DNA of 52,406 nucleotides from Nemertoderma westbladi (taxonomy: Eukaryota; Animalia; Xenacoelomorpha), in assembly GCA_032718475.1 (NCBI GenBank), contig JAUCBJ010007054.1, positions 1-52,406 on the forward strand, in the 5' to 3' direction. Below are positions 1 through 41,041 of this stretch, piece after piece. A model generated the notes under the pieces. That model was not told the DNA's origin and did not search any database. It saw only the letters and a program-made list of their open reading frames with translations. Every line of letters starts with the position of its first letter. Positions within the stretch are counted from its first letter, which is position 1. Both the position numbers and the translations under genes were made by a program.

Positions 1-741
1 ACTGGTTAACTGGCCCATACTCAATCAACGCAACATACCTAATCTAATATACCTGTGCATACTTTTATATTGTTATACTGCTATTTACTGTCGGTTCTTC
101 ATAATATGGTTGATGAATTATTATATTTGGAATAACGATAAATAACCCCGAAAACCCAATATTCTTGATATACAGAAGGTAAGAGAGACAGGTTACATAT
201 AGCGATTGTGACTTATGTTAAAGTGGTTTGAAGTGAATCTAATGTTATTTGATAGACCCTACATGAGTCGGTCTGTGTTCCTTTTATATGTGACTAAAAT
301 CAGTGAAGATCGGCAGATTAGTGTGCAGCATTGTGCAGCGTTGTGTATGAGCGAGACTGATAACGAAGCATTTCCTAAAGAATGCGCCATATATGTGAAT
401 TGTAACTAAGCCATATCGTTGTGAGTAGTTTAAGTCATAACTCTGTTTTTATAGATAGAGCGCCACGTCCTAAAGGAACTGTTAATATTCCCCGAAGGTG
501 AATAATATTGTCAGAGATTATATAATACTGTCAGTCGAATAATACATTAGGCTTACATAGCAATAAGATTAAGCCGTCGAACCCAATCTCCCGGGTATAT
601 CCAGCGGGTGAATGATCGCGCACAGATTGGTTTCGACTAGTGTAGTGAATCAAATACTTGTCAGAGGCTAAAAGTGATTTATTATCTAAAAGACATCCTA
701 ATTTGGCGGGTTAAACTGCCAAAGGTCTGAAAGCGCGAACA
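1..741 (+). mobile_element. 3' portion of a BEL/Pao-family LTR (relative of the LTRs at 20382 and 31774), inserted into a Gypsy integrase
   Basis: About 75-741 aligns with 20933-21598 with scattered substitutions and has the same end (...GGTCTGAAAGCGCGAACA). Positions 1-75 diverge from that LTR. Integrase coding sequence starts immediately after the CA. Confidence 0.9.
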
Positions 742-1719: not shown

Positions 1720-1933
1720 TATTGAGGACTGATTTACCCAGTTTGGAATACGGCGGGAGATTCAAACTGGAATACCGGATTCGCCAACTGGCAGACTGTC
1801 ATAATACAGTATTAATTAGTATCTATTGAGGAATATTATTGGTTACGGGTATTACTGTTAATTATCACCTCTTATGGCAATAATATAAACATTTCAGTAA
1901 TAGCTATTATTTATGCTTTTCCCGAACTCAATA
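1720..1933 (+). mobile_element. Gypsy 3' LTR (214 bp) with TATTGAG...CTCAATA terminal inverted repeat
   Basis: Starts after the PPT and ends exactly where satellite A begins. The ends form a 7-bp perfect inverted repeat. The partner LTR is outside the window. Confidence 0.75.
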
Positions 1934-7900: not shown

Positions 7901-7933
7901 CGCACGGTAGCAGATAGGAGCAGCGCCCACACA
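1934..7933. repeat. Minisatellite A, 36-bp unit GTAGCAGATAGGAGCAGCGCCCACACATACATTCCG, roughly 160 copies
   Basis: Direct tandem repetition. It has 40-bp variants (+GGTA) forming a 112-bp higher-order unit on the left, nearly pure 36-mers at about 5460-7350, and 23-bp variants near 5230-5420 and 7330-7910. Confidence 0.98.
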
Positions 7934-8225
7934 GGCAGTTAAAATGTTTAAATGCTGAAACCGACGCAGTCAGACTGACTCATTTTACCGTACGAGCCTG
8001 TACCCGTTCGCGGTCCAGGAACCGGTCGTAGCTTTTTGTAGTTTTACCTTTTATTTATTTTAACTACCTTCATTGATTTTAGTGGTACTGTACCCTGCAG
8101 CGCCGGCACATTGGTGCTATACGGTAGCTGCAGTTTTAATAACGGTCTACCGGTACTGTACTGTCATTTTACTTACCATATCGTCGTACACAAGACTCGT
8201 CGTACCGGGTTTGGGATTCAATAAA

Positions 8226-11200: not shown

Positions 11201-12521
11201 GAGAAACCACCAAGAAGAGAACATGATAATTCGCCAACAATTATTCGACTCTCTGCAGAAAATTATGTCCCCACTACAGTCAGTAACCCTAAAACTACAA
11301 CACCGCTCAGGTGCCACTCCTCTAGCAACAGACATATTTGAGCTTCTACGCTGTCTCTCAGCAGGGGCTATCTCAGAGGCCTGCCGTAGACGCCTAAGGA
11401 AGGTTGACTTGAATACAACGGGGATCACTTTAGAGGGCATTAGGAATGACCTCATTACAGCTGTGTCCACATTGCAGGCACGTCTTGGTCTCATCGAAAC
11501 GGAGAATTGTTCCTTAAAAGAGAAATATGGATATATCCAAGATGAACTTAGTATAGAACGCCACCAACGAATGATCTTGGAACAAAAAATTACTAGGCTA
11601 GAAGGACAACTGCAAGCATGTGAACCTTCAGGTCGAAGCAGTGAGGAAATGACTGACAAACGAAAGAAGACTCAAGTAGGCTCCCAAGACGAGTACCTTA
11701 TCATTGATTCTATATCAGCAGGGGAAAGCACACCAACCAATCCAAGAGATCAACCTCACCACGGCAATCATGATGCCAAGCCAAACGATTTGGACTGGTC
11801 CATCACTTCCAGGCGGAGAAGTTATCAAAGAAAGGATTTTTCTGCTGGTTGCCCTCCCAAATTGGTGGGACAAACAAACAACAGATTTGCCCCTCTACTC
11901 TCAGATGAAGCAGACAATGCAGCTACAATTTCAAATTCACAGTACTTAAAGGCAATTTCAAATCAGCTTCATACAAAGCAAGATACTGGTTCAAGGATTG
12001 AGAGCTCAAGCTCTAGAACAAATAATCGTAAATCAACAAGGGCTGAACTGGGTACACATAGACACTCCAGTCCTGCCAGAAGTATCAGGCATCATAGACG
12101 AGGGAAAACACTCAACAAGCAACACGAACCTAATGAATTAAAACAGGGCTCAAGCAAACAGAGCTGGTCCGAACAATTATCAAAACAAACAACTGTCTTT
12201 ATCAGCGGTGTGCCATTTGAGTACTCTGAGGATGATATAGTTGATTACTTAAATTATCATCGTATAACTACCCACCGTATAACAACACGTAACTCCAGAG
12301 ACTCTAGGAATATGAAGATATCAGTGGATTCAGGGATCGGTGATAATCTAAAAGTACCTGGTTTCTGGCCAAGAGGAATAACGTGTCGGGACTGGATCTA
12401 CCATCCTCGACACATCCACCAAGTTAACCACCACATGGAGCAACGTGATCGGTACCACAATGCAGTCAATTCAGGGTATAGAGATAGACCGTGGGCTCAC
12501 CAGCCCTTTCACCAAGACTAA
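8226..12521 (+). CDS. LINE ORF1 (1431 aa from first ATG): SAP motif, 10-aa repeats, Ulp1/C48-like peptidase, coiled coil, RRM-like C-terminus
   Basis: SAP-like KMNTKRLKLLLSNRNLSTSGSRGELLLRAE; (SSKPVDQLDT)n; LNGKSWIDDNVID...NHHWVLHVAD...YMLNS...PKQNNTWDCGAYVC; heptads near 11430-11620; TVFISGVP...MKISV...FWPRGITCRDW. Confidence 0.9.
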   Translation: MDKLKKMNTKRLKLLLSNRNLSTSGSRGELLLRAETANLCSEPEDPKLTDESLDISSRPVDRTANISSKPLDQSNISTSKPEDRLDTSSIPVDQLHASSKLTDQPGSSSKPADQLEILSKPADQLETLSKPADQLETLSKPADQLETLSKPADQLDTPSKPVDQLDTSSKPVEQLDTSSKPVDQLDTSSKHADQPVTSSKPVDQLETSSKPVDQLDTSSKHADQLVTSSKPVDQLDSSCKHEDQLVTSNKHVGQLDTSSKPADQLDTSSKPVDQLDTSTKPVDQHDSSSKPMDLVDTSSKPVDLVDTCSKPADQLDMEPVVQLHTSCKPVDLSDTTSKPVDQLDTSSKPVDQLDTSSKHADQLVTFSKPVDQLDTSCKHEDQLVTSNKHVGQLDTSSKPADQLDTSSKPVDQLDTSTQPVDQHDSSCKPVDLVDTSSKPVDLVDTCSRPADQLDMEPVVQLHTSSCKPVDLSDTTSKPVDQLDTSRKPVDQHDTRPMDQPDKPPMDQPIIDNKPMDIVYLGQVICSIPSDATDISTTPEFPLRGPLARVSPGIHTAMTSSQEDVQLIDKSIKESVTVGCNRSAGSPTTNSIDNGSGSITGTTAAYPDVPAQASPGIHTTMNPGRDVNRTTTLSPDALPFNPPIVEDLQEDGRWLLRSPKPSNKKSKDTTITHFFHPIKSETVKNKLNDESNKSVYMVHPDSSQQPLSGKILVHLMQEYLSDLPTDPLGPVDPLWSSMETLNGKSWIDDNVIDSFLSIISIALPHTASIMAVLTTKLQNPNYDKLSAIKYVARHYLSSCKKTETQLMFFPECTNHHWVLHVADTNHKTVYMLNSMPSSNTPSKTTVEIANLLNHIDLYNRVNQHQNTTLKWTTTVSECSNSFPKQNNTWDCGAYVCLYVLAIAQNLNTVSKIHKDSTSCRQWIKNCLSDMKIVHHKDVIFDFMYVPGFNDEFGDINGDNGTLDDNTPQPAPAGFSELCGILQHPRKDAINFLLRNHQEENMIIRQQLFDSLQKIMSPLQSVTLKLQHRSGATPLATDIFELLRCLSAGAISEACRRRLRKVDLNTTGITLEGIRNDLITAVSTLQARLGLIETENCSLKEKYGYIQDELSIERHQRMILEQKITRLEGQLQACEPSGRSSEEMTDKRKKTQVGSQDEYLIIDSISAGESTPTNPRDQPHHGNHDAKPNDLDWSITSRRRSYQRKDFSAGCPPKLVGQTNNRFAPLLSDEADNAATISNSQYLKAISNQLHTKQDTGSRIESSSSRTNNRKSTRAELGTHRHSSPARSIRHHRRGKTLNKQHEPNELKQGSSKQSWSEQLSKQTTVFISGVPFEYSEDDIVDYLNYHRITTHRITTRNSRDSRNMKISVDSGIGDNLKVPGFWPRGITCRDWIYHPRHIHQVNHHMEQRDRYHNAVNSGYRDRPWAHQPFHQD
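8385..9740 (+). repeat. Coding 30-bp minisatellite in ORF1 (SSKPVDQLDT), with a 414-bp higher-order duplication
   Basis: Unit CCAGTAAACCTGTGGATCAGCTTGATACCT. The KHADQLVT...MEPVVQLH block recurs at 8883 and 9297. Confidence 0.95.
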
Positions 12522-15500
12522 CACCGCTGAATGTGGTTTGGAGGAACAGCTGAGGTTGTGCACTTTTAATACCCATGGATTTGCGGCAAACTCTAAATAC
12601 ATTGCTGAGCTCTTAACCAGCTGTGATTTTCTAGGCCTCCAGGAACACTGGCTCGATGACATGGAGTGCAAAGAATCAATGTGTCTACTGGATGCCAACT
12701 TCAACTGTATATATTCAGTAAGCCACTTAATGAGCAATCCTAACCGTATACGTGGTGCAGGTGGTGTAGCCCTTTACATGAGGAAGGATAAAGTGAATAG
12801 TTTCAGTGAAGTGAAATCTGGAGATAATATTGTTGGCGTAATTGCTCATCTTCACTCCTCAAACGAGCCATTTCTGATTCTTTCAGCCTATGCCCCAGAT
12901 TCGGGGAAACCTCAAGAAGTCTACGATGAGTTCCTGGGCCGCCTCTATGGGTTACTGGAGCAGTATTCAGCATGCATCCCCATCATCCTCACTGATGCCA
13001 ATGCTGATCTTGGTAGTCTGCAGGGAAACAGATTCCTCACTGAGAAACCATCTTACAGAGGCCGGATTCTTAACTCTTTTCTAAACGATAATAATTTAAG
13101 GGCCATCGATACTCACAAGCAGTTCACTGGGCCAGTTATAACGTTTTATGGGCACAACGGTGGTCAGTCATATATTGACCATATATTGACTCCAATGTTA
13201 AACATGGTTTTGATAAAAGATGGCTGCGTATATGAAGAAGATCCTGGTAGTAACTACTCAGATCACGTACCAGTAATTGCGACATTTTCGGTTATGTTCA
13301 ACAATGACCATTCAGGGCAGAAAGTGAAGCCAACCACAAGGAGGAAAATCATGAAATTTAACTGGGCTAAAGCAACTGAAGCCCAAAAGGAAAGATATAA
13401 AGTTGCTGTTGACACACTTCTATTGGAGAATATCCATAAAATAAAATCTGAACTAGGTGGAAAACCTTCTACTGCAACTCTCGATGGTGTGATGGAGAAC
13501 ATACAGTCTGCAATTCATGATGCTGCAATTCAGAATATTCCAGTAGCAAAGCGAAAGACTGGTATAAAAAACATAAGAATTCGGTCCAAAATTCTACACC
13601 AGAGTTCGAAAACAACACAACAATTGTACCAACTATGGAGTGAAGAAGGAAAAGGCAATGAACACCCCCTTGCTACAGTGTTCAAGGAGTCCAAACGACG
13701 CACAAGGCGTATCAAAAATTTTCTCTCTAAAAACTCAGTCGCACAATCAATACATAAATGGGCCAACAAATTCAACTCAAATCCGAAATACTTTTGGGCA
13801 AAGGTAAATAAATCAAACGGAAATGGTATACCCCCCTCGATGGAAGATAAGTTGCGCGATAGTTATGTGAGAAAATTTTCCAACAATGCCTCCAAGTTGA
13901 GTGATGAACTACTGACTGACATGGACTTGGCGTGTGCAAACTCAGTGGTGCCACAAATATCCTCACTGACAGTGAAGAGAGCAATTGCAGCACTATCTAC
14001 AGGGAAAGCCCCTGATAACTCTTCGCTCACTATTGAGCATTTGCTACATTTGAACCCAGAGCCAATATGTGAAATCTTAGCAATTGTGTTCAACCTCTCA
14101 TTCATGCTGAAGAAAGTTCCTAATATATTTGGACATTCGGTTCTGACAAGCCTCTATAAGGGCAAGCATCGGGATGTTTACTCTCCTAAATCGTATCGCC
14201 CAATATCATCAATCAGCATTTGGGCCAAATTGTTTGAACATGTTGTGCTGAAGAGCTTCCTTAGCAGCATAGATCTCCATGAGAACCAGACAGCCTACCG
14301 TAGTCACATTGGGTCTGATGTAGTCATTGCAACGATGTTAGAGTGCATTGAGCATCTGCGGATGAAGAACAAGTCAGTATATCTCTGTCAGCTTGATATA
14401 GAGTCAGCATTCGACACTGTTGACTATAACGTTCTGGGCTGCAAAATGCTGGAGTGTGGAATAAACCCTCACATTGTCGCTACTGTCCTTAACTATTACA
14501 CCAGAAGCCTCTATTTTCTCAAGTTCGGCAGTGATGTTGATGCTATAGGCATCCATGTTTGTAGAGGCCTGAAACAGGGATCACTCCTCTCACCAGTCCT
14601 CTTCAATTTGTATACTAAATCCATTCTTGATGATTTGAAAAGTTCCAACCTCGGATGCTGGATAGACACACACTGGTTGGGAACAATCTCTTATGCTGAT
14701 GATTTCTTGTTAGTCTCTAACACGCAGGAGGGAATGGAGAAAATGTTTACCATGTTCCATAATAGCGCAGCAGAAATGAAACTTACAGTAGAAAAATCCA
14801 AAGTAAACTGGACTGTGTTCAACAATCACCAAGGCTGTCATAGGCCAACATTTCTTTATCTGAACGGCAAAGTGGTTCCAAGATGCGAAAAGTTAAGCTT
14901 CTTAGGGTACGATTTGGCTACTGTTATGACTAACCCCTTAAGCAAGACCCTGCAGACGATAGCGGCACTAAGCCAGACCCTTAAGAACAAGGGATGGACC
15001 TCTGAATGGCTGCCTGTTGAAACCGTATCTCACCTCTGGAGAACAGTTGCACTGCCTGTAATTTTATACGACCTGAGATTACACATTGGTTACCTCTCCC
15101 AGAACGACATGGATAGACTCGATGCCGCCCACAGAAATGCTCTGCGCAGCTTACTCTACATTGGGCGCTATGTTAGCAACCCCACACTGGAGCACCTTAC
15201 GAGCATCAATGCCCTATCAGTGGAAGCAATGCGACAAGCGGTGGGAACCATGGTGCGAATTATAGATTGTCCCAGCAAGGCTTTACAGGGATCGTTTATT
15301 AACTGCTCTGTTGCTAGTCTCGATGGAACCTCTGGGTCACGGTATCGGGGAGTGCTAAACTCTTTTATAAAAGCGCTATCTATCTTTCCCCTTCCACAGC
15401 TTGAGTCCCTATTGATGTACCGCTATGACAAGAAGTCCCTGATGAATCGTATCTCGCACGGAGCAGCATTGACTGGGGATAAGGCCAAGGCCAGCTTTAT

Positions 15501-15579
15501 CGAAGAAACATTTAATCTTAGAACATTGAGTCTCGGAGAAAAAAGAACCAGAATTAGGGACTACTTCGGTATTGTGTAA
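12460..15579 (+). CDS. LINE ORF2: apurinic endonuclease plus reverse transcriptase
   Basis: APE motifs TFNTHG, LQEHWL, SAYAP, TDANAD, SYIDHI, SDHVPV. RT motifs SYRPIS, LDIESAFDTV, GLKQGSLLSPVLFNLY, YADD, FLG. The first ATG (12460) overlaps the end of ORF1 by 62 nt. Confidence 0.96.
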   Translation: MQSIQGIEIDRGLTSPFTKTNTAECGLEEQLRLCTFNTHGFAANSKYIAELLTSCDFLGLQEHWLDDMECKESMCLLDANFNCIYSVSHLMSNPNRIRGAGGVALYMRKDKVNSFSEVKSGDNIVGVIAHLHSSNEPFLILSAYAPDSGKPQEVYDEFLGRLYGLLEQYSACIPIILTDANADLGSLQGNRFLTEKPSYRGRILNSFLNDNNLRAIDTHKQFTGPVITFYGHNGGQSYIDHILTPMLNMVLIKDGCVYEEDPGSNYSDHVPVIATFSVMFNNDHSGQKVKPTTRRKIMKFNWAKATEAQKERYKVAVDTLLLENIHKIKSELGGKPSTATLDGVMENIQSAIHDAAIQNIPVAKRKTGIKNIRIRSKILHQSSKTTQQLYQLWSEEGKGNEHPLATVFKESKRRTRRIKNFLSKNSVAQSIHKWANKFNSNPKYFWAKVNKSNGNGIPPSMEDKLRDSYVRKFSNNASKLSDELLTDMDLACANSVVPQISSLTVKRAIAALSTGKAPDNSSLTIEHLLHLNPEPICEILAIVFNLSFMLKKVPNIFGHSVLTSLYKGKHRDVYSPKSYRPISSISIWAKLFEHVVLKSFLSSIDLHENQTAYRSHIGSDVVIATMLECIEHLRMKNKSVYLCQLDIESAFDTVDYNVLGCKMLECGINPHIVATVLNYYTRSLYFLKFGSDVDAIGIHVCRGLKQGSLLSPVLFNLYTKSILDDLKSSNLGCWIDTHWLGTISYADDFLLVSNTQEGMEKMFTMFHNSAAEMKLTVEKSKVNWTVFNNHQGCHRPTFLYLNGKVVPRCEKLSFLGYDLATVMTNPLSKTLQTIAALSQTLKNKGWTSEWLPVETVSHLWRTVALPVILYDLRLHIGYLSQNDMDRLDAAHRNALRSLLYIGRYVSNPTLEHLTSINALSVEAMRQAVGTMVRIIDCPSKALQGSFINCSVASLDGTSGSRYRGVLNSFIKALSIFPLPQLESLLMYRYDKKSLMNRISHGAALTGDKAKASFIEETFNLRTLSLGEKRTRIRDYFGIV

Positions 15580-18800: not shown

Positions 18801-20381
18801 AGACCGCTCCCACTAACATCTACTCTTTCTACTCCACAGACCGCTCCCACTAACATCTACTCTTTCTACCCAACAGACCGCTCCCACTGATATCTACTCT
18901 TTCTACCTGCTAACATCTACTCTTTCTACCCACAGACCGCTCCCACTAACATCTACTCTTTCTACCCAACAGACCGCTCCCACTAACATCTACTCTTTCT
19001 ACCCCACAGACCGCTCCCACTAACATCTACTCTTTCTACCCAACAGACCGCTCCCACTGATATCTACTCTTTCTACCTGCTAACATCTACTCTTTCTACC
19101 CAACAGACCGCTCCCACTGATATCTACTCTTTCTACCTGCTAACATCTACTCTTTCTACCCACAGACCGCTCCCACTAACATCTACTCTTTCTACCCAAC
19201 AGACCGCTCCCACTAACATCTACTCTTTCTACCCCACAGACCGCTCCCACTAACATCTACTCTTTCTACCCAACAGACCGCTCCCACTGATATCTACTCT
19301 TTCTACCTGCTAACATCTACTCTTTCTACCCAACAGACCGCTCCCACTAACATCTACTCTGTCTATCCACAGACCGCTCCCACTAACATCTACTCTTTCT
19401 ACCCAACAGACCGCTCCCACTAACATCTACTCTTTCTACCCAACAGACCGCTCCCACTGATATCTACTCTTTCTACCTGCTAACATCTACTCTATCTACC
19501 CACAGACCGCTCCCGCTAACATCTACTCGTTCTACCCCACAGACCGCTCCCGCTAACATCTACTCTTTCTACCCACAGACCGCTCCCACTGATATCTACT
19601 CTTTCTACCTAGTAACATCTACTCTTTCTGCCCCACAGACCGCTCCCGCTAACATCTACTCTTTCTACCCACAGACCGCTCCCACTAACATCTACTCTTT
19701 CTACCCACAGACCGCTCCCACTGATATCTACTCTTTCTACCTAGTAACATCTACTCTTTCTGCCCCACAGACCGCTCCCGCTAACATCTACTCTTTCTAC
19801 CCACAGACCGCACCCACTGATATCTACTCTTTCTACCTGCTAACATCTACTCTTTCTACCCACAGACCGCTCCCGCTAACATCTACTCTTTCTACCCACA
19901 GACCGCTCCCACTGATATCTACTCTTTCTACCTAGTAACATCTACTCTTTCTGCCCCACAGACCGCTCCCACGTATATATACTCTTTCTACCTGCTAACA
20001 TCTACTATTTCTACTCCACAGACCGCTCCCACTGATATCAACTTATTCTACCTGCTTACATCTACTCTTTCTACCCCACAGACCGCATCCAATGATTTAT
20101 ACTCTTTCTACCTGCTAACATATACTCTTTCTATCGACAGACCGCTCCCGCTAACATCTACTCTTTCTACCCACAGACCGCTCCCGCTAACATCTACTCT
20201 TTCTATCCACAGACCACTCCCACTGATATCTACTCTTTCCACTTGGTAACATCTACACTTTCTACCCCACAGACCGCTCCCACTGATATCTACTCTTTCT
20301 ACCTGGTAACATCTACTCTTTCTGCCCCACAGACCGCTCCCACGTATATATACTCTTTCTACCTGCTAACATCTACTCTTT
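15850..20381. repeat. Minisatellite B (left arm), 36-bp unit CTAACATCTACTCTTTCTACCCACAGACCGCTCCCA with 37-bp and 23-bp variants
   Basis: Direct tandem repetition, interrupted mid-unit by the BEL/Pao element. Confidence 0.98.
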
Positions 20382-21598
20382 TGTAAAAGCTTTTGCTGAA
20401 TTGTCCGGTTATTTTTCCTTATTTTTCCCGTAAAATACTCTGTAGTTGGTTTACCAGGCATAAAAAGGCCGTGTCCTTGCTGTACTGGTGTTTTAGCGGA
20501 CATAAAAGCTATTTCTTCTGTATTTGTACTTTAGAGGACATAATCCGTAATTCCGTGACGTAAAAGCTCGATACTCTTGAAAACAGTGTCACTACCATGA
20601 CGACGGCTAGCAGCTGATATTGCCACGTCGACGTTTCTTTGTTTCTCTGTTCTCTCGTTGTTCAGGTTGACCAATCAGAGCGTTTGTTGTCTCTGTGTTG
20701 GAGGTATATACAGAAACTCAGTAGTTCAGTGTTATTTTTTTGCCCAGAGCCTAAGAACCGGCTTTGGCACCTCCGTGTTTTCAGTTTTTAGTCTTACACT
20801 AGTAGGTTTAATTATAAAGGGCATATATCCTTTAACTCATGGAATCACTGATCTGGGAATACACTGACTGTTGACACACGGCTTTTAATAACTGCTGAAA
20901 CTGCTAAAATTACCTGCTCAATCGATACTGTGTACTGCTATTTGTTGTCGGTTATTCATTATATTGGTTGATGAATTATTATATTGGAATAACGAGAAAT
21001 AACCCCGAAAACCCAATATTCTTGATATACCGAAGGTAAGAGAGAAAGGTTACCAATAACGATTGTGACTTATGTTAAAGTGGTTTGAAGTGAATCTAAT
21101 GTTATTTGATAGACCCTACATGAGTCAGTCTGTGTTCCTTTTATAGGTGACTAAAATCAGTGAAGATTGGCAGATTAGTGTGCAGTATTGTGCAGCATTG
21201 TGTATGAGTGAGTCTGTTAAAGAAGCAATTCCTAAAGAATGCGCCATATATGTGAATTATAATTAAGCCATATCGTTGTGAGTAGTTTAAGTCATAACTC
21301 TGTTTATATAGATAAAGCGCCACGTCCTAAAGGAACTGTTAATATTCCCGAAGGTAAATAATATTGTCAGAGATTATATAATACTGTCAGTCGAATAATA
21401 CATTAGGCTTACATAGCAATAAAATTAAACCGTCGAACCCAATCTCCCGGGAATATCCAGCGGGTGAATGATCGCGCACAGATTGGTTTCGACTAGTGTA
21501 GTGAATCAAATACTTGTCATAGACTAAAAACCGATTTAATATCTAGAAGACATCTTAATTTGGTGGGTTAAACTGCCAAAGGTCTGAAAGCGCGAACA
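20382..21598 (+). repeat. 5' LTR (1217 bp)
   Basis: TGTAAAAGC...GCGCGAACA. Near-identical to 31774-32990 (three substitutions seen by eye). Contains CCAAT at 20671 and TATATA at 20705. Confidence 0.97.
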
Positions 21599-21883
21599 TT
21601 AAAGGATATAGCTTCTGTATTGCAGTAGGCAATAAAGCTGAAGTACCGGCAACCGGTACCCAGTAGGCCTGACTACCTAACCACCCGGACCGGTACCTAC
21701 AGCAGTACAGGTACAGCAGTATTATTCGATTTTGATAATTATATACCGGTAGGCCTTAATAATTAATCAGGGAGGGCCCGCCCTGGTTTTTTATTGAGAT
21801 TTTTACTTATTTCTGTCAAGTTTTATTTGTTTGTAGGCCAGTATTGAACAGAAGGCGTGTAAGCCTGATCAGATTGTACAGAC

Positions 21884-22452
21884 AATTTGTAGGCTGAGCT
21901 GTTGTCTGATTGCTGTTAAGTCCGAACGAATTGCAGTGTGTGTAGATCACCTGTCCGATTAAGTACGGTTAGGAAGTAGGGGCAGCGAACGCTGTAAGGT
22001 AAACCCCCAACTAAAGAATAAGTCGCACTACTGGGTTAGAGCGCATACTCCCTAATCATTTCGGAGTCTGCATGTCCTGTAGTTTATTTAGGCTTGAGAG
22101 TAGTCTGCCATCGTTTAGTCTGTACTTTGTTTGTGTAAGTCTGTACGGGTAGCGTATAATTTTATTTAGATAATTTGTAGGCTGGATAGTTGTCCGGCTG
22201 TTATTAGGTCTGAACGGATTGCAGTGTGTGTAGATCATTTGTCTGATTAAGTACGGTTAGGAAGTAGGGGCAGCGAACGCTGTAAGGTAAACCCCCAACT
22301 AAAGAATAAGTCGCACTACTGGGTTAGAGCGCATACTCCCTAATCATTTCGGAGTCTGCATATACCGTAGTTTGTTTAGGCTTGATAGTAGTCTGTCAGT
22401 GTTCGGTCTGTATTTTGTTTGAGTAGTTTGTACGCGTAGCGTAATATTTATT
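21884..22452. repeat. Tandem duplication (288-bp period) in the BEL 5' leader
   Basis: The GCAGTGTGTGTAGATCA...GGAGTCTGCAT block occurs at 21933 and 22221, with a long identical core. Confidence 0.92.
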
Positions 22453-23768
22453 ATTCAGAGTTTATGCGATTATCCGCAACATTCATTCCCCAAGTTTTTT
22501 CCTACAGTAATTGTGTTTGTTATACATACCGCTATAGTTAAATTAACCCCGGTACTACACGGGCTGCTCGGCGTAGGTAAAGACTGGTGATTTTGTGCAT
22601 CGGTCACTCCAGCAGATGCCGTGGTTCTTTTAGCTGTTCAAGTATATTTAACTACTGATTATCTGTTGTACAAGTACTCGTACCTAATTTAGGGTTTAGT
22701 GTACAGTACTTTCCGAAGTAATTAGTGTAAACATTATATTTGTGTTGTAAAGTGGTTGATAGGCACGTTCGATTAGCTCTATTAACTTCTAGGTAGGAAC
22801 ACTCCGTGATACATAACGTAGAACCTATAGCGATACGGCTATAGGTCGTCAGGCGGTGGTATTTTCCTATCTGGACAACGCAGTGTATTTACTACTACTT
22901 ATTATTTCAAAAACCGTAGTACCCTGTCCGTTGTAATAACCGGTTATCTAACCCTTTGTTAGGCTGGTTTGTAGACTTCTTGTAAAATTACCCTAAAAAT
23001 TCGTATTTTGTGTTTTTTGTAAATTTTTGTGTTTATTTAGAGATTGTAATCTCACCCGAATTGTACGTAATTTGTAGTATTAAGTAACTTAGGTAAATTA
23101 GTATTATTTGTTTTAGTGTCTCATAAGTAACACTTCATTGAAAGCGCACCGCTTTGTGTAGTGATTACCCCCCAGAAATAATAACATTTATTTCAAACAT
23201 TGACAAAACCCATTAAAACGGGTATATATATATATATTATAAATCAAATCTAACGATTTATAAATAGTAGGCCTACCATATAACAATTAGGTCTCAATAT
23301 CAGTTGGACTACTGCTCAAATAACGGTAATAAAGTAAGTAAAGTAACCAAGTAACCCTAAAATACAGAAATTCAATTATTTAAAATAATTGATATACCGG
23401 TATTTACGATAGGCCTATTATCTTTATTTCTATAAATTTAGGCTGAAATTATACCGGTACTTGTAATTAATTCTAGTCCAGAATTATATATACTACAAAT
23501 TGTAAACTGTATACCGGTATTCCCGATAGGCCTATTATATATTTATATATATTTGTGCTAAAATTATACCGGTATTCTGAGATAAACCTAGTCTGTAATA
23601 ATACTTATATATACTATAAGCATACCGGTATTTTAATATATTATATATATATCACGCTACACTGAGTAGCAGTATCGGTAATTAATTACTAGGCTAGCAG
23701 TTAATACTGAATTACTAGACTTGCTTAGACTGTAATATAGCAGTAGGCATTCAACTGTACATACAAAT

Positions 23769-26700
23769 ATGTCTGATACTAAGCAGAACCTGTCAGACAG
23801 TTTATTAGATGTAACTATCTGCGACTCAGATAGAGACGTACAACCATCTGGTCGTAAGTTCAGTTCACCTCCCACTGTGAGGAAGGTCATCCCTCCAGTA
23901 GTAATAACAGAACCTAGGCTAGTCCAACATCGTAGGTCTATCATAGGCACCCGAGCTCAGGTCAAGCGGGACCAAGAAGCAGCGGAACAGCAACAACCCG
24001 CTAGTCAAGAACTTATTCCTCAGCGGCCCAGCAGCTCCAGTAGTGAGGATACTGTAGAGCTGACACCCGAGCGCGGAGCAGAGATGACGGATGCGGTTTA
24101 TACGGATCCCCTTCTCATCCTTCCTGCAGCCGTACTCACTAGGTTATTGATCGCGGTGGAAGAACACCAGATCGATTGGGCGAGAAGTCAACGGTCAACT
24201 AGAGATAGTTATGCGGGATACACGAGTGAAGAACTGAGGTCTATTGTCGAGTCGCAATGGAACTTCCCCGGACCCGGACTCCCGTTTGATTTATCAGAAG
24301 CTGCCTGGGAAGACATACACCGGATGGGAGTAGCCAAGGAAACCATCGATCCAGCTGTGTGGAAGAGGTCCGCAGCCGGATACGCACAGGGATTCTTCAG
24401 CTCTATAGAGCGATTTAAAGAACAACTGTTTCAACAACCTCAAGGACCTCAAGAGCAGGGATTGCTGCTTTATCAAGTTAGAGAAAGAATTCTACGAATC
24501 AGGCTAATCTTATCAGCCTTTGAGGAGGCTTCTAAATGAAGACAAGACACGTCGTTGCAAGTTGCCGTAAAGACTTGGTTTCAACGGGTGAGTCTCCAGG
24601 TTCAAGGAACAGCTCAGTGGAAAGCTCAGCTGGAGGAGCGATCAACCCATGGAGAATCAACAGACGCTACTTTTTCCCAAGTGGAAAGTGAAGCGACGGC
24701 AGAGAAACCGCATAAGAGGGATGCCATTGACATCTATCTGTCAGACTATCAACGTTTTTTAGGTGATGACGAGTTGAGGAGAAGGTTAGAGGGACTTAGC
24801 CCTAATAGTGAAGGAACCAAGCTTGTGTTGGATGCCATCGATGTGGAAATGAGGGCTGCGAATCAGGCCAAATTTGATGAACAACTCCGCCTGACACGAG
24901 TCCAAGAAGAGCAAGTAAAGAAAAAACGCATAGAAGACAGAAAGAAAGCAGCAGTGGTAGCTGCAGAAGCAGAAAGAAAAGCGGCAGCGGCAGAGGCAGT
25001 GGCAGAGGCAAAGGCGGCAGCGGCAGTGGCAGAAGCAAAAGCAGAAGCAGAAAGAAAGGCGGCAATGGCAGCGGCCGAAGCGGAAAGAAAAGCGACAGAG
25101 GCAGTGGCAGAAGCAGAACGGAGAGCAGCTGAAGAAACCATCCAATTAGAATTGGAAAACATTCAGGAGAATCAAGACTGCATAAATAAACAGTTAACAG
25201 CTAGTAATATGCAGATGATGAATCGATCTACTCCCAAAAGACAGGGATATACATCATCGGAGGAAGGCGATACCACCGATACTGAAGGCAAAGGAAATAG
25301 ATCTCGTCTAAGCAGACGTAAAAGAACATTCCACCGTCAGAAATTGCCTGATTTGCCTCCAGCTGTTAGAAGGCAACTAAATAACACCAACTTAGGTAGT
25401 ACAGAGCCCACAGACCAAATAATTAAAATAGAAAGACTCCCTACTATAGTAGATGAGCCTGAAGTAATTAGGCCTGTTCTTGAAATCACCCCTTCGGTGA
25501 TAGACACCCCTGTGCTCCCTGAAACTACCTCTAAATTCCCTCTGCATAGCACTAAGCTACCTGTGCCCCGCAGAACTGCCCAGGAGACAGTTCAGGTCCT
25601 GGACCCCGAGCGAAATATTCACAATTTGTCGCCCGTTGTCCCTCGTCCGCCCGCTACAACGTTGGCGACTCCCGCTTCGGCGGTCGAATGGGTGGACGAG
25701 AGACGGCGGGGGATGGATATCCTGCTCGGGCAGATGCAGGAGACTGTCCAGCAATTCAAGGGCACAGTAAGGGAAAGTAGACTAGAGTTGCAAGAAGTGC
25801 AGCAAAGTATCGCGCTCGAACGCGATAAATTAGTAAATACTCAAAGGGGTATACCACCACCCTCTGTAACAATGTGTCAACCTGTTAGGTCTGAAGTATC
25901 TCATGCGCAAGGTGTGGAGCCTACACGCATATATACTGCTAGCGAAGTAGAAACTCCTATAGTGAACCCTATTAAGGGTAATTATAGACCTGTTGATAAT
26001 GACATTCCCTATAGAACTGATCATAATCCGAGAAATTTATATACCGATAACTCGATATTAAATAACACGATGGCCCAAGAAAGTTTTACGCGTCAAATGG
26101 CTAGAACCGAAGCCCGGCAAGCGGTGAAGGTGGGAGAGATAGTCAAATTCAATGGAGATGAGATGAAATGGTTACCTTTTAATGAATATTACAAAGATAA
26201 CATACAGAACTCTGTACTATCTAATGGAGAAAAACTTAGATACCTCATCGAGTGCTTGGAAGGATCTCCTAAGTTAATGGCGTTAAAGTTTATTGGACAT
26301 CCGGACGGATTAAGACAAGTTTGGGACACACTAAACATCAGGTATGGTAATAGGAATAATATCGCTAAGTATTTATATGCAAAATTAGTAGCGCCCAGAA
26401 AGTTCATCAGCAGTGGGATTATAGAGTTTTCCGATGAGATTCAGGAGATCTGTAGACAACTAGATTGGTTAGGTAAGTCTCATGAATACCAGAATTCTAT
26501 GGTTGTAGGAGCCTTAGCATCTACTTTGCCCAAGGGTGGAGTAGGTACACGCTGGGACAAGAAGGTGTTATATATGATGGAACAACAACAACGAGACCCT
26601 ACCATGGCTGATCTCATGTCATTCCTGGATAGCGAGGTGAAATTACAGCTCATAAAGCAGTCCAGAGAGAAGACAGCGGAAAGTAAGGTAAGTGAGAAAC

Positions 26701-28718
26701 CCGTTTCTAGGAGAAGGGTAATACCAGTATGTTATACCGACGACGGTGAAACCCAAACTTCTCAAGGAGAGGACAGCGGGAAAGACACTGACAGATCTTA
26801 TGTCAATAAAATGCCTAAAGATCAGGTAAGTAAATCCAAGTCTCGACCCAATGACAGAAGGGAACCGGTACAAAAAACCCCTCCTACGTCTCCTAAAAGA
26901 ATTCAGGTGAGAAAGCCCGAGGAAAGAACAAGTGTGCACCACACAGCACATGTTAAAGTAAGTAACATCAAGCCCAAATGTGTGCTGTGCGACGGGCCCC
27001 ACCGTTTAAATGCGTGTGATAAATTCCTGAGGAAATCACTAAAGGATAGACGTGAAGTCATGTGGGATAAGCGGTTGTGTTATAATTGCCTCAGACGAGG
27101 ACACCAACGGCGAACCTGTAACTCCGACGCAAGGTGTGCAAAGTGCGGCGCAAAACATCATATCTTGTTGCACACGGAATTCGAACGAAACAGCCCGAGT
27201 CAGGTAAGTGAGTCCGAACTATATGTCCAATTCAGTGATGTGAACGACACTGATCAATCTGAGATGGAAGGATTCTATACGGACGAGTTCTCCGACCAAA
27301 ACGAATCCTGTTACCTAATAAACACCACCGCAGTGTATCGAACACTCGTGTATGAGAAAGACACAGACAGCGACCTTACCTTAACTACTTCCGATCAACA
27401 ACCATCTTGGAAAGCGCCAACTTCCAATATAGGAATCCGAGAATTTCCTGTAGTCCAGTTACGGGTCCACGGACCTCAGAAGAGCTATATAGTGAACGCC
27501 CTCCTGGACTCCGGTAGCACAGGAACATTCATCGATAAAGAACTAGCCGAAGTCATCTTTGCTGGACAACCCAAGTTCCGAACCAAGCTAAACATGTCAG
27601 GGATCATGCAGGTTTGGAATTCTACTGTAGCTGCCGACTATTATATAGGTGAGTTGTCCACCCCACAGGATAAACTAGGAGAATATAGTATAAGGTCAGT
27701 GAAAATGGTGGCTATAAAGAACTTCGCTACTACTCAAGCAGACCTTTATAATTGGGAAGAGGATGAGAGCATCCAACATCTTAACATACCTCGATTCCAG
27801 ACTGATTATCCTGGATTGCAAATACTCATCGGCCAAAACGCGCATGAGGCGCTGGAGACATTAGAGAAACGACCTGCTCAACCGCAGCCACTACAGACCT
27901 ATGCGGTAAGAACTAGAGTAGGTTGGTACCTTACTGGACCTTCCCGTAGAACGCTCAGGGAAAGACTGCTTCAAGATCGCGTCTGCCAGGTGAGTGAATG
28001 GGAAGATGATACTAGTGAGGGAGATGACCCAACTGAGGGAACACCACACTCCTCAGATAATGACAATCTTAGCTCCAATGTAGATCAATGGAGATATTGC
28101 CCCAAGAAGTTTAATCCAACTGACATCGCTTCCAGAGGAGCAACTCCTCAAGAACTGACAGATACTACAGACCGGTTAGGTGAACCCGACTTCCTGAGTA
28201 AGGAGGATGAATGGCCTCCCCATCTTACTCCGACTGAGATTAGACCAGCCAAGGGAGCGGAGAAAGTCAAACCTAAAACCCGGACGGGTGGATCGGAGTT
28301 ATTTGAACCCGGGATAGATCTGTCGGTATTACATATTGCCAGGGACGACGCCGTGGATCTGGACCTCCCCACCGCGAGTGGATCCTTCATGAAGATCAGA
28401 GAGAGCGATTGGAGCTCTGGAACATCAGACGTCTCGCAGGGACTCTCACCTCTCCTGCAGAGAGCGACGGACCACTATAGCTCCTGGAATCGGCTTTGTG
28501 ACGCCGTCATATACTTTGAGCGATGTTTCTATCGTCACTATTCCAGGACGAAGAGGAAACCTGGAATTGTATTCAGGATGCAGCGACTCAATCACCCAGT
28601 CGGTCGTTTGTGTTTATCGGAAGGGAATGGAGGACTCTCCGGAAACTGTGGAAGGCAAGATTCTCTTCCCACGACCACCTCCCTAATCCTTCAAACATCT
28701 AGGGACTCCATAACGTAA
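23769..28718 (+). CDS. BEL/Pao gag-protease polyprotein with in-frame pol remnants, broken by one TGA (24537-24539)
   Basis: ORFs 23769-24539 and 24555-28718 share a frame. It has an Ala/Glu coiled coil, DUF1759-like KFNGDEMKW...EKLRYL, three BEL zinc knuckles (CVLCDGPHRLNAC, CYNCLRRGHQRRTC, CAKCGAKHHILLH), protease ALLDSGSTGTFI and RTRVGWYLTGP. There is no RT motif. Confidence 0.9.
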
Positions 28719-31700
28719 CAACATATGGAGTGGGTGTGTGACTCTATTATTTTATATTATTTTATTATTTTTATATTTATGTATGTATTACTATGTAATT
28801 CTATTATAATCGTTTTCTTTAATTTTATTCAGTAGAATGTTATTTTAGCGATTATTTAGTAGATTAGTGCAATATATATTCGCGTTTATTACTTAATTAC
28901 GTATATATTATATTTAATGCGACGGCAAGAAATAATTCTTTTCCTTCTTCCTTACTGTCCGTATTACATTACAAATACGTAACTACAGTAAGATGAAATG
29001 TCCGTACTTATTAAAGTACAATAAAGCCACTACTATATTCAAGTATTATTGGTAGGCAGAGTATTAGGAATGCAAAGTTCAGATCCTCGTGTCTCGGCTA
29101 AACCAAGCTCTGGGTAGACCTTGGAAACGACTTGCCTCTTCACACTGACATTGCTTCGTGCGATATTGCTCTCATACCGTATATTAAATAATACATATAG
29201 TAGCGTGATGTCCCTTTAACAGTAGCGTATAACGCAAAATAAATCTGTTAAACCCTTTGACCATCTGTAATTCTAGTCGATTAAGATATCGCAGCACCCA
29301 CCGATATACTTGAAAGACAAATTCTAGAATCAGTGGTTAACGTCCCCAGACAAGTTCTGGAATAAATCGGTGCCCATCTCAAATATTAATTATTTAATAT
29401 TTGCAAATCTAATAAATCAAAATCTGTAAAATTCAGATCCTTCAACAATTCTAGTCAATTAAGATATCGTAGCATTTACCGATATTCTTAAAAAAGACAA
29501 TTGTCATAGAATTAAGGATCTTGTGTCCCTAGACATGTTCTAGAATCAAAATATGTCCATTTAATTATCAAATAATAAAATTTCAGGGAATAAATTTAAA
29601 TTCATGCTTTTTAATGAATTTAATAAATTGCCATTTTTACGCAATTTATAAAGTTCCCAAAATTCCATTAATTAATAGATCAAGGGAGCGGAGATTTATC
29701 TTATCATGCGTATGAGTGTGTGAAAGTCTCCCAAACATAGTCAATAGCCGATAAAATTCATAAAGTCATGTATAAAACAGAACATTGACTATTAAAGAAT
29801 ACTATTAAATAACATCCCAGATCTGTATGCATTGGAATTACTCTAATTCTACCGCTAGCTTTGCATAATGTCACCATAGCAACAACCACGCTAGAATTAG
29901 AATTGAGTTAAAAGAAAAATAGAAAGCTTGTTCTATTGAATAGCATAGGGAATAAATAGCGCACTGATAGTATCCAAGAATACATAATAATACAGTGACA
30001 TTCTGGAAGGCATTGACTAACGGACAAATGGTCCGAATGTGCGTAGTTGTGACCAGTTGTGTGGTATTTGTGAGTTTATAGGTGAATGTTACTGCTAAAG
30101 TGTGTTTACAGTAGCTAGTCGCAATCGTAAAAGTAACCTAACTCTCCAAGAAAAACCTGAAGTACATCTAAGCCTTTGGGACGGACAGTTGAGTGACTTG
30201 TGCCGGTGGTCGTTGTCGTTGTGCGGCTACGTCGTTGGCGAAAGTACAGCGGCGACGACACATCGGCGCTGAGGATCTCGTACTGTCCGGGGGTTGATTG
30301 GGGTAGGCAGCGACGTCCGCTCGCCTAAATATAAACTCATTATAATATGGATAAACTCATATATAGCAGATATGACGGAGTTGATAGAAGATGGTCTTGG
30401 TATCGGGGAGCGATATACTCTACTTTTACAAGCGTTTGTTGTTAGCTTAATACGCGGCGACTTTAGTCCAACTGCTGCGGAGGACGATGGTCGTTATATC
30501 GAACCGCCAATGTCCCAAGAGCAGCTCGCGCGCGAGTTGGACTATAGAAAATTCGCTGCTCGATATACGCAGCGTAATGGTACGTATATGGTCTTCTTAA
30601 CTACTGGTCATCCTATCGATTTACACAATACGGACTATGTCGACTATATATCCTGCCCAGCGGAGTCGGAACCATAAACTGAAATTCGAATGCGAAAATT
30701 CTATTCAAAATCGACTCGAAAGAAAAGACACTAAAGAAACAAATAAACGCGGTAACTCCAACGTATATTTGGAATTCTTGATAGAAGCATTGTAACAACA
30801 AATAAATATCACCCGCGTTTCCCCTACCAGACGTGCGTCTTTGGTATTATTACGGTAAATGCCCTAGATCCAGCCAATAAACGGAAAGACATAAACATCC
30901 ACGGAAACGTTGTGTTAAACACAGTTGTATTCGTTATATTTACTGGAGTTTCGAGCGAAACTTGTTTGACGTATCACCTATGCTCACTCGGCTCTAACGA
31001 TCCTAGAGTAAACCTACGATCAGAGTCCCGGAATACTCGGTCAAACCTCCTCATTCCTTAGTTGGACCTCAGACCTGTGATCCTGGTGGTGTCGCGGATC
31101 CTCGCGGACTGTATTCACTGTTCAAGATCTAGTGCTACCCTAACAATTAATCGGTAACACTCCGACAGTGATTTCTAGCTAGCCGCCCATCTTGCCTAGC
31201 CGGATTATGACGCAGACACCTAATATCACTATCCAACCGTATGGTCGTCCCCGTTTAACGCGATACAACCCCTCATCAAGGTGAAGGAGAGCGTTGTACG
31301 AAACGAGTTAAACGCTATTCTATAAAGATCAAAAAGGAAACCTGCGTTTGTTCAGATAAACGTAAGTTATAACAGTAAGTCCAATCGATAAACGAATTGG
31401 CCTTATCTCAATTCGATTGGGAAATCCAGAATCTCTAAGAACTTGGACGATCCTATTCTCTGCGAGAGTTTTTGGATGAACGTATCCAGCTACGAGCGGA
31501 GGAAAATCAGCTCGAGGAGAAGCATATCGAAACGGCAGATACCTCGACCATAAACCTACACCTTCTGATGCAATCATATTGCACCCTTCACCCAGGAGTT
31601 ATGGCCCTCCTAGTAAAGTGGCTCCCCCCAAAGAGAGAAAGACTCTTGCTAGCCTCAAAAAACTGCGTAAACGCCGTCTGCGTAAAAAAGACTAACTGTT

Positions 31701-31773
31701 TAGAGTATCTTTATGTTTTAGAAACTGTGATTTTTATATTTTATAGACTGAAAATCCCATTTTCTGGGAGCAG

Positions 31774-32990
31774 TGTAAAAGCTTTTGCTGAATTGTCTGG
31801 TTATTTTTCCTTATTTTTCCCGTAAAATACTCTGTAGTTGGTTTACCAGGCATAAAAAGGCCGTGTCCTTGCTGTACTGGTGTTTTAGCGGACATAAAAG
31901 CTATTTCTTCTGTATTTGTACTTTAGAGGACATAATCCGTAATTCCGTGACGTAAAAGCTCGATACTCTTGAAAACAGTGTCGCTACCATGACGACGGCT
32001 AGCAGCTGATATTGCCACGTCGACGTTTCTTTGTTTCTCTGTTCTCTCGTTGTTCAGGTTGACCAATCAGAGCGTTTGTTGTCTCTGTGTTGGAGGTATA
32101 TACAGAAACTCAGTAGTTCAGTGTTATTTTTTTGCCCAGAGCCTAAGAACCGGCTTTGGCACCTCCGTGTTTTCAGTTTTTAGTCTTACACTAGTAGGTT
32201 TAATTATAAAGGGCATATATCCTTTAACTCATGGAATCACTGATCTGGGAATACACTGACTGTTGACACACGGCTTTTAATAACTGCTGAAACTGCTAAA
32301 ATTACCTGCTCAATCGATACTGTGTACTGCTATTTGTTGTCGGTTATTCATTATAATGGTTGATGAATTATTATATTGGAATAACGAGAAATAACCCCGA
32401 AAACCCAATATTCTTGATATACCGAAGGTAAGAGAGAAAGGTTACCAATAACGATTGTGACTTATGTTAAAGTGGTTTGAAGTGAATCTAATGTTATTTG
32501 ATAGACCCTACATGAGTCAGTCTGTGTTCCTTTTATAGGTGACTAAAATCAGTGAAGATTGGCAGATTAGTGTGCAGTATTGTGCAGCATTGTGTATGAG
32601 TGAGTCTGTTAAAGAAGCAATTCCTAAAGAATGCGCCATATATGTGAATTATAATTAAGCCATATCGTTGTGAGTAGTTTAAGTCATAACTCTGTTTATA
32701 TAGATAAAGCGCCACGTCCTAAAGGAACTGTTAATATTCCCGAAGGTAAATAATATTGTCAGAGATTATATAATACTGTCAGTCGAATAATACATTAGGC
32801 TTACATAGCAATAAAATTAAACCGTCGAACCCAATCTCCCGGGAATATCCAGCGGGTGAATGATCGCGCACAGATTGGTTTCGACTAGTGTAGTGAATCA
32901 AATACTTGTCATAGACTAAAAACCGATTTAATATCTAGAAGACATCTTAATTTGGTGGGTTAAACTGCCAAAGGTCTGAAAGCGCGAACA
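31774..32990 (+). repeat. 3' LTR (1217 bp)
   Basis: Copy of 20382-21598, followed by the TSD TCTTT. Confidence 0.97.
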
Positions 32991-35900
32991 TCTTTCGACC
33001 CCACAGAACGCTCCCACTGATATCAACTTATTCTACCTGCTTACATCTACTCTTTCTACCCCACAGACCGCATCCAATGATTTATACTCTTTCTACCTGC
33101 TAACATATACTCTTTCTATCGACAGACCGCTCCCGCTAACATCTACTCTTTCTATCCACAGACCGCTCCCACTAACATCTACTCTTTCTACCTGCTAACA
33201 TCTACTCTTTCTACCCACAGACGGCTTCCACTGATATCTACTCTTTCTACCTACAGACCGCTCCCGCTAACATCTACTCTTTCTATTCACAGACCGCTCC
33301 CACTGATATCTACTCTTTCTACCTGCAAACATCTACTCTTTCTACCCACAGACCGCTTCCACTAACATCTACTCTTTCTACCCACACGCACACACCCCTC
33401 CCACTAACATCTACTCTTTCTACCCACAGACCGCTCCCACTAACATCTACTCTTTCTACCTACTAACATCTACTCTTTCTGCCCACAGACCGCTCCCACT
33501 GTTATCTACTATTTCTACCCACAGACCGCTCCCACTGATATCTACTCGTTCTACCCACAGACCGCTCCCGATAAAATGTACTATTTCTACACAGACCGCT
33601 CCAACTAACATCTACTCTTTCTACCCACTAACATCTACTCTTTCTACCCACAGACAGCTCCCACTGCTTTCTACTCTTTCTACCCACAGACCGCTCCCAC
33701 TTTTATCTACTCTTTCTACCCACAGACTGCTCCCGATAAAATCTAATATTTCTACACAGACCGCTCCCATTAACATCTACTCTTTCTACCCACAGACCGC
33801 TCCCACTAACATCTACTCTTTCTACCCACAGATCGCACCCACTAACATCTACTCTTTCTACCCCACAGACCGCTCCCGCTAACATCTACTCTTTCAATCC
33901 AGAAACCGCTCCCACTGATATCTACTCTTTCTACCTGGTAACATCTACACTTTCTACCCCACAGACCGCTCCCACTGATATATACTCTTTCTACCTGGTA
34001 ACATCTACTCTTTCTACCCACTAACATCTACTCATTCGCACCCACAGACCGCTCCCACTGATATATAATCTTTCTACCTGATAACATCTACTCTTTTTAC
34101 ATGCTAACATCTGCTCTTTCTACCCACAGACCGCACCCACTGATGTCTACTCTTTCTACCTGCTAACATCTACTCTTTATATCCACAGACCGCTCCCACT
34201 AACATCTACTCTTTCTACCCACAGACCGCTCCCGCTAACATCTACTCTTTCTACCCACAGACCACTCCCACTGATATCTACTCTTTCTACCTAGTAACAT
34301 CTACTATTTCTGCCCCACAGACCGCTCCCACGTATATATACTCTTTCTACCTGCTAACATCTACTATTTCTACTCCACAGACCGCTCCCACTGATATCAA
34401 CTTATTCTACCTGCTTACATCTACTATTTCTGCCCCACAGACCGCTCCCACGTATATATACTCTTTCTACCTGCTAACATCTACTATTTCTACTCCACAG
34501 ACCGCTCCCACTGATATCAACTTATTCTACCTGCTTACATCTACTCTTTCTACCCCACAGACCGCATCCAATGATTTATACTCTTTCTACCTGCTAACAT
34601 ATACTCTTTCTATCGACAGACCGCTCCCGCTAACATCTACTCTTTCTACCCACAGACCGCTCCCGCTAACATCTACTCTTTCTATCCACAGACCACTCCC
34701 ACTGATATCTACTCTTTCCACTTGGTAACATCTACACTTTCTACCCCACAGACCGCTCCCACTGATATCTACTCTTTCTACCTGGTAACATCTACTCTTT
34801 CTGCCCCACAGACCGCTCCCACGTATATATACTCTTTCTACCTGCTAACATCTACTCTTTCGACCCCACAGAACGCTCCCACTGATATCAACTTATTCTA
34901 CCTGCTTACATCTACTCTTTCTACCCCACAGACCGCATCCAATGATTTATACTCTTTCTACCTGCTAACATATACTCTTTCTATCGACAGACCGCTCCCG
35001 CTAACATCTACTCTTTCTACCCACAGACCGCTCCCGCTAACATCTACTCTTTCTATCCACAGACCACTCCCACTGATATCTACTCTTTCCACTTGGTAAC
35101 ATCTACACTTTCTACCCCACAGACCGCTCCCACTGATATCTACTCTTTCTACCTGCTAACATATACTCTTTTTACATGCTATCATCTACTCTTTCTACCC
35201 ACAGACCGCACCCACTGATTTCTACTCTTTCTACCTGCTAACATCTACTCGTTCTATCCACAGACCGCCCCCACTGATATCTACTCTTTCTACCCACAGA
35301 CCGCTCCCGCTAACATCTACTCTTTCTACCCACAGACCGCTCCCACTGATATCTACTCTTTCTACCTGGTAACATCTACTCTTTCTGCCCCACAGACCGC
35401 TCCCACTGATATCAACTCTTTCTACCTGCTAACATCTATTCTTTCTGCCCCACAGACCGCTCCCACTGATATCTACTCTTTCTACCTGGTAACATCTACT
35501 CTTTCTACCCCACAGACCGCTTTCACTGATATCTAATCTTTCTACCTGGTAACATCTACTCTTTCTACCCCACAGACCGCTTTCACTGATATCTAATCTT
35601 TCTACCTGCTAACATTTACTCTTTCTACCTGCTAACATCTACTCTTTCTATCCACAGACCGCCCCCACTGATATCTACTCTTTCTACCCACAGACCGCTC
35701 CCGCTAACATCTACTCTTTCTACCCACAGACCGCTCCCACTGATATCAACTCTTTCTACCTGCTAACATCTACTCTTTCTGCCCCACAGACCGCTCCCAC
35801 TGATATCTACTCTTTCTACCTGGTAACATCTACTCTTTCTACCCCACAGACCGCTTTCACTGATATCTAATCTTTCTACCTGCTAACATCTACTCTTTCT

Positions 35901-40963: not shown

Positions 40964-41041
40964 TCATTAACCGTGTGTTAGAGCTATTATTCTCTACATT
41001 ATGTGATGCCGGTTACTTTTATGTAGTTTGTAGTAATTTGT

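Follow-up and report, generated by a model that had tools for sequence, protein, structure and literature searches.

How does the LTR retrotransposon at 20382–32990 of a Nemertoderma westbladi contig start reverse transcription, if the position next to its 5′ LTR holds no TGG-type tRNA-binding site? The element was studied in a window of 52,406 nt, which is the whole stretch of DNA analysed here. It is 12.6 kb long and sits in a 23/36-bp satellite array (Table 1). The two LTRs, 1217 bp each, have three differences between them and TCTTT stands on either flank; three differing sites together with a 5-bp target duplication indicate a recent insertion.

Table 1. Features of the element and of the sibling LTR in the window.
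Feature	Positions	Strand	Remarks
Sibling LTR	1..741	+	94% over 76–741; truncated at the window start, which falls a little 3′ of the P-equivalent
Left target-site duplication, 5 bp	20377..20381	no strand	within the 23/36-bp satellite array
5′ LTR, 1217 bp, TG...CA	20382..21598	+	from LTR comparison
Arm upstream of P	20784..20817	+	Watson-Crick stems of 11, 9 and 9 bp; weak evidence
TATAAA hexamer	20813..20818	+	candidate TATA box or poly(A) signal, or neither
Segment P	20824..20835	+	pairs with the PBS over all 12 nt; the self-primer probably has its 3′ end here
Exon end before consensus splice donor (GT at 21036)	21027..21035	+	complements 21612–21620 at 8/9
Predicted intron, 232 nt	21036..21267	+	strong donor, weak AAG acceptor
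Predicted exon-2 start	21268..21277	+	with 21027–21035 forms candidate junction J, pairing with 21602–21620
AATAAA	21418..21423	+	likely poly(A) signal; altered in the sibling LTR
Primer-binding position, no TGG	21599..21620	+	21599–21610 pairs with P, 21602–21620 with J
267-codon frame	23736..24539	+	no Pfam match; one TGA before the next in-frame ORF
1392-codon frame	24540..28718	+	Gag DUF1759, Cys-His knuckles, aspartic protease motif, short RNase H-end remnant
Purine-rich tract adjoining the 3′ LTR	31766..31773	+	likely PPT
3′ LTR	31774..32990	+	second copy of segment P at 32216–32227
Right target-site duplication	32991..32995	no strand	

Judged from its sequence, the element is a young non-autonomous BEL/Pao derivative that would need Pol in trans. 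The TG...CA ends and the target duplication (4–6 bp in BEL/Pao elements) agree with this superfamily, as do the protease and the Gag with DUF1759 (E = 3.8e-12) and repeated Cys-His knuckles, the knuckles and the protease motif being read in the translation. All 11 protein matches were BEL/Pao-type polyproteins with PF03564 and PF05380 at 22–41% identity, and two additional searches gave one match apiece. The BEL/Pao identity assumed in the original prediction is thus borne out; the non-autonomy had not been mentioned there. Reverse transcriptase and integrase gave no match in the element, and the class placement uses only Gag, protease and the RNase H-end remnant, which is all that this deletion derivative retains of pol. 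No close protein relative or autonomous partner was found, the best identities being the 22–41% given above; among the best 150 matches in a representative protein library none exceeded about 40% identity, and scans of viral contigs yielded nothing.

The leader between the 5′ LTR and the first frame is 2.1 kb long and contains a 288-bp tandem duplication (88%) at 21879–22459. The single TGA at 24537–24539 is a candidate for programmed readthrough or a nonsense change. The 3-kb stretch before the 3′ LTR (28718–31773) has three frames of 101–134 codons without a Pfam match. Elsewhere in the window, a LINE at 8064–15579 has a 1485-codon ORF1 that carries a Ulp1/C48 peptidase domain, a tract of 30-bp repeats and, below cut-off, a SAP domain; endonuclease and reverse transcriptase follow. 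An apparent two-exon host gene at about 41040–42885 was noted by eye; its small protein has a signal-peptide-like start, a Val/Arg/His-rich part and then Gly/Val-rich repeats. Satellite arrays of 36-bp, 23/36-bp and 52-bp units (1933–7933, 15850–40184 and 45428–52406) host or flank the insertions.

The sequence TTAAAGGATATA at 21599–21610 follows the 5′ LTR directly, with zero spacer. The first TGG 3′ of the LTR lies at 21784, after 185 bases without one, and no 18-nt PBS for tRNA-Arg or tRNA-Gly of the kind described by the ICTV is present in the element. The exact reverse complement of 21599–21610 occurs at 20824–20835 (segment P) and 32216–32227 and at no other place in the window. When P is paired, its 3′ end abuts the LTR end at offset 0, as the original prediction had described along with the missing TGG and both copies of the complement. 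Past a one-base bulge, two extra pairs join 20821–20822 to 21611–21612, and the duplex including the bulge reaches −14.2 kcal/mol, against −11.2 kcal/mol at the next best LTR site.

Control comparisons showed that such a match is rare. When the LTR was shuffled 20,000 times with its dinucleotides preserved, 7 of the shuffles had a complement of at least 12 nt at offset 0, and 12 had one when offsets 0–3 were allowed. In the pseudo-PBS control, two of 10,175 real internal positions reached 12, namely the PBS itself and an A/T-only stretch. The P–PBS complementarity is real and beyond chance. An 8-nt complement between 20709–20716 and 21613–21620 was also considered and rejected, since an LTR of 1.2 kb may hold one by chance (8 nt was reached in about 4% of shuffles).

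Distant BEL/Pao relatives were collected by a metagenome scan, from which 80 of 459 confirmed loci were obtained. Most loci with a readable leader had a TGG-type PBS. The longest self-complement was 4–7 nt in 12 TGG-type controls, which are near-copies of about six families, and splice-junction pairing was 0–5 nt in the seven of these controls checked for it. Locus L004 had a leader without TGG, the first 13 bases of which exactly complement the junction left in its LTR when a 139-nt GT-AG intron is removed. None of 3,305 pseudo-PBS controls for L004 reached 12; in a second set, 2 of 1,649 reached 12 and none 13. A genome-contig scan with an alignment of the L004 group gave eight loci (L081–L088); their retrieval with this very group weighs against reading their place in the tree (see below) as independent. 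Their contigs are labelled as bacterial genome bins and are probably mis-binned animal (host) DNA. The LTR and leader were readable in L082, L083, L085 and L087, whereas L084, L086 and L088 had no 5′ end, and L081 had a non-TGG leader with the middle of the LTR missing from the contig. The TGG-type PBS was absent in six related loci.

Each of the five readable relatives had no TGG and a leader that pairs with its own LTR. The longest exact runs were 13 nt (L004), 11 nt (L082, a match that depends on an LTR end at the terminal inverted repeat, 42 nt beyond its first placement), 8 nt (L083, or 11/12 with one mismatch), 11 nt (L085) and 12 nt (L087, whose LTR end is uncertain). In each of the five the pairing spans a predicted GT-AG intron whose donor fits the consensus and whose acceptor is rich in pyrimidines; the introns are 77–382 nt long, and 68–256 nt of LTR follows the pairing segment. 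The original prediction had proposed a test for covariation between PBS and LTR segment in the family and its autonomous relatives; what these distant relatives show is pairing to the own LTR with differing letters, across a predicted splice junction. When bulges are allowed, the duplexes of the five relatives start at leader position 1–2, as does that of P. By eye, the L003 3′ end and the L088 3′ LTR show an apparent GT-AG intron in the LTR like that of L004.

The six leaders, those of the five relatives and of the element, are all different. Their exact runs with the own LTR are 8–13 nt, and the 30 cross comparisons of a leader with the LTRs of the other elements gave 5–8 nt. A 30-row tree built from a hand-picked, non-redundant subset of loci showed one branch (96/99) separating seven non-TGG rows, the element's included, from ten TGG rows, and a 32-row tree built before the genome-contig scan showed a similar split. 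The element's row has a long branch (1.31) and 48% of columns filled, and the tree places it only on the non-TGG side as a whole.

We propose that the element primes reverse transcription with its own LTR segment P instead of a tRNA, a reading of the sequence to which we give a probability of about 0.55. Self-priming in some form is probable. Transcription would start upstream of P, with candidate initiators at 20720, 20728 and 20783. P could then fold back onto 21599–21610 over a 763-nt loop, possibly helped by pairing of the upstream arm with U5. By analogy with Tf1, an autonomous partner would provide a reverse transcriptase in trans, and the RNase H of this enzyme would cut the RNA after 20835. 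The freed 3′-OH would abut the LTR end, so that minus-strand DNA would begin at the terminal CA, and the remainder of R would be used for strand transfer. An imperfect complement at a splice junction of the same LTR (21035|21268) would be a likely older primer of the lineage, now decaying.

The general idea of self-priming in the original prediction gains from the statistics, the five relatives and the end of a block shared among family copies (see below), whereas neither of the two specific routes offered there was shown. A primer at the RNA 5′ end, as in Tf1, is doubtful, since the pairing segment of the relatives spans a predicted intron and would thus lie inside the transcript.

RNA folding was considered for the arm upstream of P. 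The stems of the arm pair with 21521–21531, 21492–21500 and 21423–21431 and cross the P–PBS helix. Five long stems tile 20784–20835, and 7 of 2,000 shuffles were as good; as a strong signal this tiling was rejected, because five stems in 52 nt were also present in 36 of 195 control stretches of real DNA. A similar arm lies 9–10 nt upstream of the junction in relatives, with control fractions of 0.005 (L004), 0.049 (L083) and 0.12 (L085), and was not convincing in L087 (0.43). Changes in the arm (loose contig ends before 20785 and 20796; 21523 and 21531) would compensate each other and lie on unlinked contigs. Nested folding gave the P–PBS helix a probability of 0.86–0.92 only with an RNA start at 20813–20824 and an end at 21640–21680, and 0.0 when the 5′ part was longer or the RNA ended at 21760; it cannot represent crossing helices and therefore decides nothing on this helix. 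Stems of 9–11 bp between LTR positions 21378–21413 and leader positions 21701–21866 were noted at the position of a U5–leader stem.

Six of 11 listed sequencing runs of the host contain the element or a part of it, none of them recorded as RNA, and contigs from four runs revealed a high-copy, variable family. The depth, which is a sum over contigs and not a copy number, was high over 20782–20831 and collapsed over 20832–20931 in all four runs. Resolved more finely in the two runs that had cover, it dropped at about 20834–20841, and loose contig ends branch off behind 20837 and 20841, which indicates that the shared block ends 2–6 bases after P; contigs cannot show transcript starts or ends. 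One 168-nt contig matches 20785–20837 only (5 changes, 1 gap). The loose end of one contig suggests that four changes of one subfamily sit at 20792–20795, outside P. A shared block at 20785–20837 would also fit a core promoter around the TATAAA, which would place P in U3. The variant listings are incomplete (40 of 145 rows in one of two contig comparisons), so that their showing no variant in P or the PBS is not taken as proof of conservation; a change at 20736 was frequent in that comparison and missing from the other.

The same LTR holds a second candidate, overlooked in the original prediction. Once the intron at 21036–21267 is removed, junction J would pair with 21602–21620 as a splice-built self-primer, and P would be a docking or blocking sequence. 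Junction J matches at 16 of 19 positions in this LTR and at 17 of 19 in the sibling LTR, the latter figure mixing the sibling's junction with the PBS of the element at 20382–32990. The best 16-nt windows scored 14 and 15, respectively, while the 150 pseudo-PBS used as controls for each went no higher than 13, and the duplex energies in this comparison were −16.4 and −21.1 kcal/mol, against −17.0 kcal/mol for P. The sibling's equivalent of the exon end 21027–21035 is a 9/9 complement to 21612–21620, and the longest exact splice-junction match in this LTR is 9 nt. The consensus donor, an intron length within the range of the relatives and an AATAAA downstream agree with a splice-built primer, which would also account for the survival of the intron. 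On the other side, the acceptor is an AAG without the pyrimidine tract found in all five relatives. The J duplex ends 3 nt short of the LTR end and is mismatched at PBS positions 1–3, 6 and 12; even with bulges allowed it does not begin at leader position 1–2. In three runs, 58–100% of the summed depth has a different base at 21617, at the cost of one pair, and loose ends with other letters at 21257–21266 occur in other subfamilies. The 21035|21268 joint was unseen in the contigs of one possible RNA run, although contigs cannot show its absence.

In LTR replication, plus-strand synthesis recopies the PBS from the primer, so that the true primer should be the one that fits it best, counted from the LTR end. 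Since this recopying takes place in each cycle and only P matches 12/12 from the LTR end, we prefer P over J. Among the points that cast doubt on P, the pairing segment lies over a predicted splice junction in every one of the five relatives and is contiguous in none, and a donor at 21036 used inside R would purge the intron from the progeny, yet the intron is kept. If P is the primer, the donor at 21036 would be idle in the packaged RNA or would serve a longer splice towards gag. Priming from J is unlikely in our view, though it survives better than the other alternatives. We tentatively suggest, at less than even odds, that a whole branch of animal BEL/Pao elements self-primes, ancestrally with a splice-built primer, and that the element is caught in transition from 21035|21268 to 20824–20835.

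The sibling LTR at 1–741 starts at about the equivalent of 20842 and has no PBS after it. It abuts the integrase frame (rve, 731–1648) of another LTR element, and its first 75 bases differ from 20842–20932, like those of other contig subfamilies. A duplication relating the LTR modules 20700–20845 and 21015–21290 was rejected, since 60% of shuffles score as high. A second donor-like site, with GT at 21354, lies in 21342–21359 in a context resembling that at 21036, and 21342–21350 pairs with 21448–21456.

Priming by a host RNA (a tRNA half, an internal tRNA site or another small RNA) is less likely again. The complement in the LTR would then be due to chance or be a by-product, such as a copy templated on a single occasion in reverse transcription. 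The ICTV account describes belpaovirids as tRNA-primed, with an 18-nt PBS for tRNA-Arg or tRNA-Gly, a size of 4.2–10 kb and a replication that is 'poorly understood' (PMC8742986), in line with what the original prediction said of BEL/Pao elements in general. Copia elements with half-tRNA primers also exist (PMC6317226). However, six different leaders stand on one branch and each matches its own LTR only, which rules out one host primer as the explanation. The PBS gave no Rfam match, no tRNA gene was found within the window, and a match such as that of P has a chance of about 1 in 3,000 even when P is taken alone.

The least likely alternative is that the TATAAA at 20813 is a TATA box (with a start near 20839–20847) or a poly(A) signal and that P acts from its 3′ copy at 32216–32227, the P–PBS pairing circularising the RNA or P becoming a 3′-end primer after cutting. 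The end of the shared block (20837–20841) is where transcription from such a TATA box would begin or poly(A) cleavage would take place, and the geometry would allow the arm to pair the 3′ U3 with the 5′ U5. If the primer lay at the U3/R border, however, a single molecule would have no overlap left for its strand transfer, and the stretch of LTR after the relatives' segment and their predicted intron point to the 5′ copy.

Priming from P would resemble a known mechanism in another group of elements. Self-priming has been shown for Tf1 and proposed for Tj1, Tf1/sushi, Tcn1 and the plant copia TAR lineage (PMC7175516, PMC4600332, PMC6317226, PMC5341516, PMC6934838, PMC5443660, PMC3601003). The original prediction was correct on Tf1 and too narrow in extending the mechanism to chromoviruses only, copia TAR being another proposed case (PMC6317226). 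Tf1 and Tf2 of Schizosaccharomyces pombe, Tj1 of S. japonicus, Tf1/sushi and Tcn1 are Ty3/gypsy groups. In these groups a tRNA PBS is missing, and an 11–12-nt PBS that directly follows the LTR can pair with a stretch of that LTR (PMC7175516, PMC4600332, PMC6317226); the element studied here has the same arrangement. The RNase H of Tf1 cuts between bases 11 and 12 (PMC7175516). Unlike these groups, the element belongs to another superfamily, with proteins of the BEL/Pao type in place of a Ty3/gypsy chromovirus ancestry, and the cleavage proposed here is drawn by analogy. The feature would thus work like Tf1 self-priming in an element that is no member of the Tf1 group.

The element shares with Belpaoviridae the TG...CA LTRs, the 5-bp duplication, the DUF1759 Gag, the Cys-His knuckles, the protease and the RNase H-end motif, and differs from the ICTV description in having no TGG site, a length of 12.6 kb and most of pol missing. 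In the plant copia TAR lineage (Houba, Osr-1), self-priming outside Tf1/sushi was predicted from sequence (PMC6317226); unlike the element, that lineage belongs to the Copia superfamily and to plants. A full-text literature search, with subscription papers, Repbase, GyDB and supplements outside its scope, returned no report of self-priming in BEL/Pao elements. The passages of four BEL/Pao surveys found under PBS, primer and tRNA (PMC554778, PMC3118150, PMC6238403, PMC2774666) do not discuss priming, and the accessible parts of PMC8220671 and PMC3587641 give no account of it for BEL/Pao.

If confirmed, self-priming in this BEL/Pao branch would mean that initiation without a tRNA arose independently one more time. 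Elements of the branch may then be freed from control by tRNA fragments, and it would be clear why PBS finders report nothing in them. BEL/Pao is, to our knowledge, the least studied LTR superfamily. One LTR holding both a contiguous and a junction complement of one PBS offers a sharp test, the primer ending at 20835 in one case and near 21277 in the other. The position of the primer end would tell whether host splicing gates the replication of these elements and whether such a gate can be lost.
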